Shown here: piece by piece, positions 164-723 of the stretch
How the letters are laid out: each line of letters begins with the position of its first letter
Numbering within the stretch: position 1 is the first letter of the stretch
Source: Escherichia coli
GTDB lineage: Bacteria; Pseudomonadota; Gammaproteobacteria; Enterobacterales; Enterobacteriaceae
Assembly: GCF_003334335.1 (NCBI RefSeq)
Contig: NZ_QOWQ01000100.1
DNA: 1,712 nucleotides
Strand: one strand, 5' to 3'
Position numbers and translations under genes: made by a program
The notes under the pieces: generated by a model
Told to the model about the DNA's origin: nothing
Seen by the model: the letters and a program-made list of their open reading frames with translations, nothing else
Databases searched by the model: none

Positions 164-316
164 GGGTATCGGCGCGCTTGACCTCCTGAGAGCCTCTGTA
201 AGCGTTTTTCGCGCCTTCCATGCCCTGGCGGGCATCTAAAACCCGTTTCGTGCGTCTGAGAGCTTTTGAGCGCGTTTGAGGGGCTATCTGGCGACTCATC
301 CCCAAAAGAACAACAC

Positions 317-350
317 CGGGATCACCGACAACATGCGAGAGGTGATCCCG
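317..350. repeat. Hairpin: 10-bp perfect inverted repeat CGGGATCACC / GGTGATCCCG with 14-nt loop
   Basis: 317-326 is the exact reverse complement of 341-350; the loop is GACAACATGCGAGA (327-340). It is followed by a purine-rich stretch with three GGAAG repeats (394-398, 400-404, 411-415). Confidence 0.8.
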
Positions 351-472
351 CTCGCCGCAAGTCGATGACCGAGCGTAGCGAGCGAATCGACGAGGAAGCG
401 GAAGAGAACCGGAAGCCACATTGAGCACTTACGCACTGATGCGGGGTGTCGGGGTGAAGCCCTGACCAAGTG

Positions 473-510
473 GTAATCGTATCGGCGTGCATGCGCGGTT
501 ATACGATTAC
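473..510. repeat. Nested hairpin: 10-bp perfect inverted repeat GTAATCGTAT / ATACGATTAC with 18-nt spacer
   Basis: 473-482 is the exact reverse complement of 501-510. The spacer contains the GCATGC palindrome (489-494). Confidence 0.8.
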
Positions 511-555
511 ACATCCTGTCCCGATTTCTGAGGCGTTTTAACGGTGAACGGACGG

Positions 556-612
556 CAAAAACACGATGGAGCTGTTGAACGTGAAAACCACGAAATCTGG
601 CAAAAATCACGG
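556..612. repeat. Three imperfect direct repeats of an AAAA(N)CACG motif (iteron-like)
   Basis: CAAAAACACGA at 556-566, GAAAACCACGA at 583-593 and CAAAAATCACGG at 601-612, with starts spaced 27 and 18 bp, inside the core bounded by the 25-bp inverted repeats. Short and degenerate, so the iteron reading is tentative. Confidence 0.4.
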
Positions 613-698
613 CTGGCGAGGCTTGCATAGGAGTAAGCCAGTATACACTCCGCTATCGCTACGTGACTGGGTCAGGGCTTCACCCCGACACCCCCAAA

Positions 699-723
699 GG
701 GCGTTGCGTTGCACGCAACACCC
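699..723. other. Hairpin: stem GGGCGTTGCGT / ACGCAACACCC with 3-nt loop
   Basis: 699-709 pairs with 713-723 with one C/A mismatch (10 of 11 bp), loop TGC. It is not followed by a T-run on either strand, so it is not an obvious intrinsic terminator. It shares the GCAAC/GTTGC motif with the downstream operator region. Confidence 0.5.

Follow-up and report, generated by a model that had tools for sequence, protein, structure and literature searches.

A non-coding patchwork of probable transfer-origin and priming sites in a common one-gene plasmid of Escherichia coli

What is a long GC-rich tract without a credible gene doing in a plasmid that encodes a single protein? The window, meaning the whole 1,712-nucleotide stretch of E. 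coli DNA analysed here, raises this question at positions 164-723, where the GC content is 0.52-0.60 against 0.43-0.45 in the half carrying the rep gene, and where the GC step falls at the same places as the module boundaries described below. A first-pass annotation, made from the letters alone, saw a non-coding region dense in secondary structure and proposed cis-acting replication or copy-control functions, or a structured RNA. Database comparison (1549 bp, Col(MG828), a single HTH rep gene) identifies the window as the common pKL1/Col(MG828) cryptic plasmid of E. coli. Its terminal repeat is the 163-bp overlap from assembly of the circle, the second copy of which contains five T>A errors. 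The link to pKL1 of E. coli KL4 (Burian et al. 1997-2003) is presumed from the shared size of 1549 bp. The sole gene of the plasmid is repA; relaxase and accessory transfer genes are absent, and MOB-suite types the plasmid as mobilizable although it has no typed relaxase. PLSDB holds more than 330 near-full-length copies, with Klebsiella, Shigella and Salmonella also among the hosts. When the non-coding part is used as the query, records of 1549-bp plasmids from E. coli O104:H4 match the window at 99.6%. The closest homologue of these O104:H4 plasmids is pSF301-1, and they have been described as cryptic plasmids that "only encode repA" (PMC3486847). The features of the region are listed in Table 1.

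Table 1. Features of the 164-723 region and of the neighbouring third transfer origin, in window coordinates
Feature	Position	Strand	Predicted nick	Basis
Core A, conserved two-hairpin element without a name	166-243	+		Conservation, covariation
Variable spacer between cores A and B	244-347			23% variable
110-aa open frame, not a gene	296-628	-		Comparative test
Core B, homologue of ColE1 ssiA (putatively PriA-dependent, phiX174-type primosome assembly site)	348-405	+		Homology, covariation
Orphan oriT of I-complex (R64/IncI-gamma/K) type	443-535	+	between 518 and 519	Homology, arm covariation
Variable, family-specific spacer between two inversely oriented oriTs	536-627			26% variable, 10 gapped columns
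Orphan oriT of ColE1 type (bom; MOB-HEN / MOBP5)	634-698	-	between 638 and 637	Homology
Palindrome, left edge of the pKL1-type replicon module	697-725			Homology boundary, compensation
Third orphan oriT, IncX (R6K) type, outside 164-723	1414-1474	+	between 1463 and 1464	Homology

The first part of the answer is a transfer origin (oriT). By homology the block is an I-complex oriT (R64-type, MOBP), at which nicking and mobilisation would be expected. It comprises a left domain (443-471), an inverted repeat (473-510) and the nick region ACATCCTG/TCC, the slash here and below marking the nick. Positions 442-534 are 90-92% identical to positions 4001-4092 of an IncI-gamma/K1 plasmid (L001), which lie directly upstream of nikA(mobA) and the relaxase gene. 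The hairpin noticed earlier at 473-510 is the relaxosome inverted repeat of this oriT, and such oriT inverted repeats are bound by NikA (PMC9282650). Five different arm sequences are found among the relatives, all of them still pairing and then followed by the invariant ACATCCTGTCC; one relative (L004) has exactly the arms of the IncK2/Z oriT. Variability is 58% in the arms, compared with 12% in the nick region and 12-23% in the flanking blocks. Since the arms differ and match different I-complex helpers while the nick region is fixed, they appear to set helper specificity. A sibling (L013) is a cointegrate of the small plasmid with an IncK2/Z plasmid, both junctions of which are inside the conserved nick-region block, and unlike the window plasmid it encodes its own NikA. 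With repA as its only gene, the window plasmid lacks the cognate nikA and nikB, which makes this an orphan oriT of the pOriT type and not a mobilisation module. The nick positions given here are predicted from the R64, RP4 and ColE1 systems, with the inverted repeat taken to end 8 nt from the nick.

The second orphan oriT, a ColE1-type bom, is on the opposite strand and reads GGGGGTGTCGGGG...GTATACTGG/CTTA. Positions 641-634 of the minus strand are CTGGCTTA, which contains the nick motif CTGG/CTTA. Over the whole block the identity to positions 2982-3046 of ColE1 (L002) is 94%, and that ColE1 segment sits between the RNAII origin region and rop/mbe, which is the position of bom. Homology to ColE1 stops only 4 nt past the predicted nick. 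The same block of 60-66 bp is present in roughly 1800 mobilizable plasmids and is 11% variable within the plasmid family; mbeA-D and mobC-mobA are absent in cis. The first 29 nt of bom are an inverted copy of 443-471, and this 29-nt inverted repeat (443-471 and 666-694, 97%) is the strongest repeat found, one that the first-pass annotation had missed. In ColE1-type plasmids the nicked strand is the complement of the strand that is usually written (PMC9282650, Fig. 3 legend).

A third oriT, of IncX type, is found beyond the region. Here an inverted repeat with arms GACAATCA and TGATTGTC, the hairpin fold of which has a z of -2.9, precedes TATCCTG/C. An IncX4 plasmid contains two inverted copies that match this block at 84-85% identity, and one of the two lies about 50 bp upstream of taxA(ddp1)-taxC. 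Copies of the module on larger plasmids gave two leads that were set aside. In the IncX1 copy the nick motif is mutated (ACATTCTG) and the pas is truncated; this copy looks integrated and decayed rather than ancestral, and IncX plasmids were rejected as the source of the module. The IncFIA copy, in which the nick motif takes the form GAGGAAGTTGACGAG, also looks decayed. It lies 450-680 bp beyond resD with no repE in the gap, and this F-plasmid lead is silent on function.

Upstream of the I-complex oriT is core B, which is by sequence a homologue of a PriA-type primosome assembly site (pas) and so presumably PriA-dependent. It holds the GGAAG repeats of the first-pass annotation (GCGAGGAAGCGGAAGAG), confirmed here at 394, 400 and 411. 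Positions 348-444 are 75% identical over 99 nt to ColE1 (L002) positions 2829-2925; the ColE1 match is about 110-200 nt downstream of the ColE1 origin, the origin motif ggaaaaacgcc being at about 2711-2721. The predicted long hairpin has a basal stem of CCGCT (348-352) with AGCGG (397-401), and in the consensus hairpin of 12 copies, ColE1 included, 6 of 15 pairs show compensated changes. Within the hairpin is the 5'-GAAGCGG-3' block: GAGGAAG is invariant in all 12 copies, and the CGG that comes after it is kept in 11 of the 12. The hallmark of n' sites is AAGCGG. In ColE1 the existence and role of ssiA are documented (PMC3167613). Small plasmids can replicate without their ssi elements, the loss of which leads to higher copy number and multimerisation (PMC6854812, 10.1101/2022.12.05.519187).

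Core A is also strongly conserved, varying by only 9% within the family. Its stems pair 171-176 with 210-215 and 220-225 with 230-235, the second being the hairpin seen earlier at 220-235, and the first loop contains the near-invariant CTCTGTAAGCGTTTTT (194-209). It adjoins replication genes in RepL, IncX4, IncX1, 24-kb RepA, Sodalis and Arsenophonus plasmids, and in the carriers examined it is upstream of a pas-like core B in the same orientation. Across 12 sequences, 87.7% of cells are paired and 4 pairs are changed on both sides, compared with 1.2 in shuffles; the covariation score was matched by 1 of 500 shuffles, which for 12 sequences is modest support. G-T wobbles are permitted on the plus strand only. 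Searches found no homologue of known function for core A, and in the phage collection it had no match among G4-type phage origins. The matches in that collection come from this same plasmid filed under 'phage', or from vector-like pas sequences of pMB1 type, and the sole record labelled phiX174 (Z35638.1, 3164 bp) matches the pas block at 339-406, not core A. An invariant CTG in the loop between the two hairpins is compatible with a G site and proves nothing. That core A is the 'CR' of pHW126-type plasmids is unlikely, CR being about 20 bp long and family-specific. The spacer between cores A and B has a 28-bp duplication in one relative (L009) and is replaced or resized in others (L014, L016, L017, L018). 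For the spacer between the two oriTs no homologue was found outside the plasmid family.

From the homology, the context on helper plasmids, the pattern of conservation, the covariation and the non-coding status observed here, it is likely that 164-723 is a non-coding patchwork of transfer-origin and priming DNA sites, for which nicking, mobilisation, PriA dependence and the role of core A are what we infer. Such sites would act while the DNA is single-stranded. With 1399-1549 and 1-163, the region would make up a portable GC-rich module of about 850 bp, joined to a minimal pKL1-type replicon (oriV and repA, about 700-1400). NikA from a helper would bind the inverted repeat at 473-510 and NikB would nick after ACATCCTG (518/519). 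A co-resident ColE1-type MbeA would nick the opposite-oriented bom at CTGG/CTTA, and the nicked strand would be led into the recipient through the mating channel of the helper. On the plus strand, core B would serve as a PriA-type primosome assembly site. Core A is probably part of the same priming signal, and during vegetative replication the two cores would prime synthesis of the complementary strand. Action on the transferred strand in the recipient is a further possibility, given that transfer from the I-type and IncX-type oriTs moves the plus strand; for the ColE1-type oriT the pas is on the strand that is not transferred. The sites probably let a one-gene plasmid move by the machinery of other plasmids. 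Against this, one close relative that has the same module (L007) is typed by MOB-suite as non-mobilizable.

Are these sites in use, or are they inert relics of ColE1-like and I-complex DNA, acquired by recombination, kept as spacer and used neither for transfer nor for priming? The plasmid has no relaxase or accessory gene and is widely called cryptic (PMC3486847), and decayed copies do exist elsewhere in the IncX1 and IncFIA plasmids, the former with its altered motif and truncated pas. Against this reading, conservation is highest in the functional cores, which are 9-12% variable, and lower in the spacers, which vary by 23-26% and contain indels. Changes in the arms are compensated and match living helper plasmids, and the nick motifs are intact in 8 of 8 family members examined. 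In addition, plasmids of as little as 1263 bp, from which useless DNA should vanish, still have the module. We regard the relic explanation as unlikely.

Replication or copy-control functions were among the suggestions of the first-pass annotation. The region adjoins the rep upstream region, and the palindrome at its right end (folding z -3.2) does track the pKL1-type replicon; in one relative (L006) both arms are changed yet pair perfectly (ATAGTGTTGC and GCAACACTAT). Furthermore, in other small plasmids an ssi element can alter copy number and the formation of multimers (PMC6854812). Could 164-723 then be part of the vegetative origin, as iterons or another initiator-specific cis site, or a locus for pKL1 copy-number control? 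The palindrome itself is outside the portable oriT/ssi module, as homology with plasmids carrying other rep genes (L007, L008) ends at 697-702. Positions 1-697 are also present with unrelated rep genes (L007, L008, L011), and a region shared with unrelated initiators cannot be an initiator-specific origin or copy-control locus. The pKL1 oriV, with an IHF box and Rep sites, is upstream of repA (PMC3832669), which places the origin outside 164-723. No iteron-like array was found in 164-697, and inspection by eye gave no convincing Tus/Ter site, XerCD/cer site or DnaA box. What had been suspected of copy control includes some 160 bp of conserved sequence that corresponds to transfer origins (I-complex, 90-92%; ColE1 bom, 94%). 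The idea of cis-acting functions thus holds in that the region is made of cis-acting DNA sites, but their assignment to replication or copy control was mostly wrong; the GGAAG-containing block, being homologous to the primosome assembly site of ColE1, would be the only replication-related part. We think it very unlikely that the vegetative origin or a pKL1 copy-control locus is here.

The hairpins that first drew attention to the region are real. Those at 220-235, 317-350, 473-510 and about 697-725 (given before as 699-723) are all present, each folds better than shuffles (z -2.6 to -3.75), and two independent perfect 10-bp stems are found, for which the probability of a maximum stem of at least 10 bp is 0.008 in 500 dinucleotide shuffles. 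As bulk folding of 164-445 is no better than shuffled (z -0.06 and +0.37, ssDNA, both strands), the region as a whole is not densely structured and has only a few specific hairpins. Comparison with relatives upholds some of these and not others: compensatory change is seen at 473-510 and 697-725 and conservation at 220-235, while at 317-350 uncompensated changes disrupt the stem in 6 of 7 relatives (L005-L010). A degenerate 22-bp direct repeat that starts with CTGAGAGC (186-207 and 256-277) is present with 77% identity, but at roughly the level of chance (about 0.2 expected in a binomial estimate) and without comparative support; its second copy, like the broken hairpin, is in the spacer between cores A and B.

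Do the hairpins belong to a structured regulatory or primer RNA, such as an antisense copy-control RNA or an RNAII-like preprimer? Several of them are stable, the G-T wobbles of core A would equally fit a plus-strand RNA, and there is neighbouring homology to a ColE1-type plasmid with RNA-primed replication. The homologous ColE1 segment is, however, downstream of the RNA/DNA switch and outside RNAI/RNAII. An Rfam scan at the permissive threshold of E<=10 returned noise and no relevant RNA family, a scan of 1-1000 on both strands found no sigma-70-like promoter, and a terminator scan gave two weak terminator-like sites, not above shuffles. With folding energy also at the level of shuffles, these results speak against the structured RNA once proposed. 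Every conserved block matches a known DNA site, and pKL1 control is by RepA binding upstream of repA (PMC3832669). An RNA encoded here is, in our judgement, highly improbable.

The non-coding status of 164-723 was proposed from the start and is borne out by comparison. The 110-aa minus-strand frame does exist, with arginine at 17 of its 110 residues and, upstream of its ATG, CTTACTCCT, which has no Shine-Dalgarno sequence. It is not quite the only open frame, as had been stated: it is the sole one of at least 60 aa inside the region, but a 61-aa frame (4-189) overlaps the left edge and several frames of 30-56 aa are present. In seven relatives we looked for conserved coding potential across 296-628, the result that the first-pass annotation had named as refuting its view, and found none. 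The ATG is CTG in all seven, with in-frame stops in L004, L006 and L008 and frameshifts in L005, L007, L009 and L010. Variable sites by codon position number 30/31/28, with no third-position bias, against 13/3/64 in repA. There is no match in NCBIfam or Pfam, and five smaller frames were likewise rejected as coding. That the frame, or shorter annotated pieces of it, is a real small protein has next to no chance of being true: it is open in the window and some database records label pieces of it 'replication protein' or 'hypothetical protein', but beside the lost start codon, the disruptions in every relative, the flat codon profile and the missing family match and ribosome-binding site, it crosses sites that lie between genes in ColE1 and IncK plasmids. 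Annotation pipelines should drop the 'replication protein' and 'hypothetical protein' frames across these sites.

The patchwork of transfer and priming sites does not change current understanding of those elements, since the oriT and priming sequences are near-identical copies of described textbook sites; core A is the only element here that is not already characterised. Its interest is in the plasmid, which is one of the small plasmids most often met in E. coli and is routinely dismissed in genome papers as cryptic, with repA only. If half of it is a transfer-and-priming cassette, this would explain the wide spread of a one-gene plasmid and would make it a small, naturally occurring case of hitchhiking by oriT alone on several families of helper. 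A bolder idea, which we hold as doubtful, is that cores A and B form an undescribed, initiator-independent, two-domain priming cassette, and that the plasmid is a 'triple hitcher' with swappable arms. If it were true, the A and B cassette would move among replicons that are not related to one another, in hosts ranging from E. coli to Arsenophonus and Sodalis, and the invariant CTCTGTAAGCGTTTTT shown in a hairpin loop of core A would act as a recognition element of a new kind, such as a determinant for primase or for PriA loading. The plasmid would carry oriTs for three relaxase families, the I-type arms being swapped by recombination and following the circulating helper.

How does this plasmid compare with known systems? 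To pKL1 and pG-EA11 of E. coli O104:H4 it corresponds in size and in replicon type Col(MG828), and no structural difference was found. The order and relative orientation of pas followed by bom are as in ColE1 and pBR322, the identity to ColE1 being 75% in the pas and 94% in the nic region. The upstream RNAII/RNAI origin, rop, mbe and the second ColE1 site, ssiB, are absent from the window plasmid, and the gap between pas and bom is about 190 bp against 57 bp in ColE1, because the I-complex oriT and a spacer sit between them. Like pBR322, which has bom without mob genes, the window plasmid would need Mbe proteins in trans. The pHW126-type plasmids (pIGRK, pIGMS31), compared by description, are likewise very small enterobacterial plasmids in which a palindromic, non-coding signal for priming adjoins the replication module, and their ssi is dispensable for replication and affects copy number and multimerisation (PMC6854812). 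The two-core architecture of A and B is not described in the papers on pHW126-type ssi.

The oriT of R64 (IncI1) and of the I-complex plasmids (IncI-gamma, K, B/O, Z) has parts corresponding to those seen here, namely a left domain, a long inverted repeat that ends just ahead of ACATCCTG, and a nick region; the window plasmid differs in that nikA and nikB do not adjoin the site, which is instead paired with an opposite-oriented oriT of another family. Another small cryptic E. coli plasmid without a relaxase, pBuzz of Moran and Hall (2019, Plasmid 101:10; cited in PMC6807383), reportedly carries two oriTs in inverse orientation and undergoes mobilisation by a B/O plasmid. It is described as a rolling-circle plasmid, whereas the window plasmid has a pKL1-type replicon, its two inverse oriTs come from separate families, the I-complex and ColE1, and it carries a further oriT of IncX type. 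The pOriT concept, with its R64-like, ColE1-like and R6K-like oriT families, covers such plasmids; about 88% of oriT-bearing plasmids of E. coli have one oriT only (PMC10123127). As in the pOriT plasmids (Ares-Arroyo et al. 2023, PMC10123127) and the staphylococcal oriT mimics (PMC8136818), which are relaxase-less, the oriTs here resemble those of helpers and their variants are helper-matched. Among pOriT plasmids the window plasmid is an extreme case, with three oriT families on 1.5 kb of DNA and a single gene.

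The first 163 nt of the window are repeated at 1550-1712, so the molecule is a circle of 1549 bp whose assembled ends overlap. Over its full length it matches, at 99.7-99.9% identity, dozens of plasmids of that same length (1549 bp) from E. coli, Klebsiella and E. fergusonii, which are of type Col(MG828) and whose annotation shows just one gene, a rep gene with a helix-turn-helix. The family is presumably pKL1, pG-EA11 being its name in E. coli O104:H4. The second copy of the overlap differs from the first at five positions (1627, 1646, 1664, 1676 and 1696), each a T>A change immediately 3' of a C, and the first copy is an exact match to the database plasmids; the pattern suggests a systematic error at the contig end rather than biology. 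In a phage collection search, three 'Escherichia phage' records of 1.4-1.9 kb (OR844749.1, OR844798.1 and OX638291.1; 91-99.8% identity over 1-445) proved to be this same plasmid, which points either to carry-over or packaging of plasmid DNA when viromes were prepared, or to mislabelling of the records.

The plasmid consists of two modules, the boundaries of which coincide with a step in GC from ~0.6 to ~0.45. The portable module is common to small plasmids of 1263-2313 bp with different rep genes (L007, L008 and L011). Among close relatives (L004, L005, L009 and L010) repA is 97-99.6% identical, versus 86-92% for the non-coding module (164-723), so the module is mosaic or recombining, or is evolving faster than the gene. 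PMC3832669 (citing Burian et al. 2003) locates the pKL1 oriV on the upstream side of repA, where it has an IHF box and sites bound by Rep; in the window this puts oriV outside 164-723. One relative of 2810 bp (L006, NZ_CP122699.1) has two cargo genes, one for a 'lipid II-degrading bacteriocin' (colicin M-like) and one of the YebF family; the minimal backbone can thus serve as a bacteriocin vector.

Features of the plasmid, in window coordinates
Feature	Position	Remarks
Portable module	~1399 through junction to ~700 (~1399-1549 + 1-702)	GC-rich (58-63%); non-coding half
Replicon module	~700-1400	43-46% GC
Core A	~166-243	two hairpins
110-aa frame	296-628(-)	non-coding
Perfect hairpin	317-350	in variable spacer
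Core B	~348-403	ssiA (pas) homologue
I-type oriT	442-540	hairpin arms 473-510
29-nt inverted repeat	443-471 / 666-694	97%
Spacer between oriTs	536-627	family-specific, with indels
ColE1-type oriT	634-700	
Palindrome	697-725	
oriV	~725-920	from literature placement
repA	924-1400	
Octamer copies	52-59, 713-720, 849-856	inverted repeats
IncX/R6K-type oriT	1414-1474	outside 164-723, in portable module

The first-pass annotation described 164-723 as a GC-rich region with no credible ORF and dense secondary-structure potential. The features it listed, a 110-aa frame, four hairpins, three GGAAG copies and a 22-bp direct repeat, were all found at the coordinates it gave. The non-coding reading was borne out by the refuting check that this annotation had itself proposed, in which conserved coding potential was assessed by alignment with seven relatives, 83-95% identical over the plasmid. 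The ATG of the frame is CTG in all seven; three have in-frame stops and four have frame shifts, the indels including 1-nt changes, an 8-nt deletion and a 28-nt duplication. Variable sites fall 30/31/28 by codon position, versus 13/3/64 in the repA control, and NCBIfam and Pfam held no match for this frame or the smaller ORFs. Database records CP056580.1 and NZ_CP070032.1 contain, across the pas and oriT, a 41-aa 'replication protein' (296-421(-)) or a 73-aa 'hypothetical protein' (296-517(-)); given the coding tests these are spurious calls.

The structural claim held for the individual hairpins, each of which beats shuffled sequence (z -2.6 to -3.75), but not for 164-445 as a whole, which shows no excess folding over shuffles on either strand. 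Two independent perfect 10-bp stems are present, where shuffles give P ~0.008 for even one at the region's composition. By our own estimate the 22-bp direct repeat is about what chance would produce. The strongest repeat of the region, absent from the earlier list, is a 29-nt inverted repeat, which is explained by the opening domain (GGGGTGTCGGGG..GCCCTGACC.AGT) that an I-type and a ColE1-type oriT have in common and by their facing orientation. The perfect hairpin at 317-350 lies in a spacer in which one relative has a 28-bp duplication; six of the seven relatives (L005-L010) have substitutions that break the hairpin without compensation. Homology to plasmids with other rep genes ends at 697-702, so the adjacent palindrome is part of the pKL1-type replicon; in L006 both of its arms are altered and pairing is kept. 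The octamer TGCAACAC / GTGTTGCA recurs with close variants, one copy within this palindrome and one in the repA upstream region, and the copies may be RepA-binding sites.

When 164-723 was searched against 72,556 plasmids, 2210 records matched, far beyond the family itself, because of two short blocks, the I-complex (R64-type) and ColE1-type oriTs. The first is ~90% identical to ~90-kb conjugative plasmids, and in an IncI-gamma/K1 plasmid the matched segment adjoins the operon of nikA(mobA) and the relaxase gene, which is where I-complex plasmids have their oriT. Its nick region, ACATCCTGTCC, is invariant across relatives. The hairpin arms are the most variable block of the region, with 58% of positions varying versus 12% in the nick region, yet all five arm sequences seen form a hairpin at the same place. 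The window's arms are those of the IncI-gamma/K1 oriT, and those of relative L004 are identical to an IncK2/Z plasmid's. NikA is described as binding oriT inverted repeats (PMC9282650), and the pattern would be expected if the arms decide which helper's NikA binds. A constant nick region, together with arms that vary but always pair, speaks for maintenance of the I-type oriT.

A natural experiment supports the use of such sites in vivo. The IncK2/Z conjugative plasmid p5312.29 (L013, NZ_KR905385.1) contains within its oriT, at 3390-5803, a complete ~2.3-kb RepL/NikA small plasmid that has window 1525-436 in common. The insert is flanked by two direct oriT copies with exchanged arms and post-nick sequences: at one junction IncK arms are followed by small-plasmid sequence, at the other the reverse holds, and the crossover falls inside the ACATCCTGTCC block. 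Judged by these junctions, which bear the signature of relaxase-mediated oriT-oriT recombination, this is a natural cointegrate. Separately, a copy of nearly all of the portable module is integrated at 2690-3310 in an IncX1 plasmid (L019, NZ_CP086609.1), where it has decayed: the pas is partly deleted and the I-type nick motif is mutated to ACATTCTG.

The second block has matches in thousands of mobilizable plasmids of ColE1 type; its counterpart in ColE1 itself (94%) sits at the bom/oriT position, with the replication origin on one side and rop/mbe on the other. On the minus strand the block ends in GTATACTGG|CTTA, the ColE1 nick motif. The third orphan oriT, of IncX/R6K type, has an inverted repeat (GACAATCA and TGATTGTC) followed by TATCCTG|C. 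It matches two inverted oriT-like copies in an IncX4 plasmid (L015, 6189-6243 and 14139-14079), the first just upstream of taxA/taxC.

The left part of the region is also found beyond the family. By local alignment 348-444 is 75% identical to a ColE1 segment ~110-200 nt downstream of the origin, a segment reported to hold the primosome assembly site ssiA (PMC3167613), and the GGAAG repeats form the GCGAGGAAGCGGAAGAG block of this ssiA-like site. Core A precedes core B in constant order and orientation, with a variable spacer, in plasmids with unrelated initiators: pKL1-type RepA plasmids, RepL plasmids of E. coli and Arsenophonus, IncX4, IncX1, Sodalis pSG1, a 24-kb RepA plasmid and, as a decayed copy, an IncFIA plasmid. 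In an Arsenophonus phage-plasmid, BLAST hits were limited to the pas block plus a little sequence upstream of it; the MAFFT alignment contains the pas block and a diverged core A. Among carriers with annotated flanking genes the element is usually within ~1 kb of a replication gene. The 24-kb plasmid (L014, NZ_CP101228.1), which is MOBC conjugative, has its repA between two pas-like copies, one on each strand, at 2327-2422(-) and 4329-4416(+), resembling the ssiA/ssiB layout of ColE1.

The core B consensus is a long hairpin with a basal stem built from conserved GAGGAAGCGG, and in a set of 12 copies, ColE1 included, compensated changes occur at 6 of the 15 pairs. Covariation in the two hairpins of core A is modest (four pairs change on both sides versus 1.2 expected, a score reached by 1 of 500 shuffles); the wobble pairs fit the + strand only, and a loop holds a near-invariant CTCTGTAAGCGTTTTT. 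A search of the phage collection gave no match of core A to G4-type origins.

The homology, context, conservation and covariation of these sites are what the analysis shows; that they are nicked and transferred, that priming depends on PriA and that core A plays any part are inferences. In the most likely mechanism, a helper's relaxosome, be it NikA/NikB of the I-complex, MbeA and partners of a co-resident ColE1-type plasmid or TaxA/TaxC of IncX, would nick one of the orphan oriTs, and the nicked strand would then pass out by way of the helper's channel. From the I-type and IncX-type sites this would be the + strand, on which cores A and B lie, and from the ColE1-type site the - strand, the nicked strand of ColE1-type sites being the complementary one in the Fig. 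3 legend of PMC9282650. The pas would recruit PriA and hence a primosome for complementary-strand synthesis in vegetative replication, and possibly also in the recipient.

How does this plasmid compare with known systems? It has the sequence and architecture of an R64-type oriT, a ColE1-type oriT and a ColE1-type ssiA, lacking only the cognate genes in cis, and is therefore a relaxase-less 'pOriT' in the sense of PMC10123127. MOB-suite types family records as mobilizable though no relaxase is typed, which means that at least one of the oriTs is already known to databases. Mildly interesting are the constant pairing of core A with a pas and the packing of three oriT families, with hairpin arms matched to helpers, on a one-gene plasmid. 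For accessory ssi elements, pHW126-type small plasmids are the experimental precedent: ssi deletion is reported to leave replication intact, raise copy number and cause multimerisation (PMC6854812; 10.1101/2022.12.05.519187). In its bom the window plasmid resembles pBR322, and in its two inverse oriTs it resembles pBuzz, as cited in PMC6807383.
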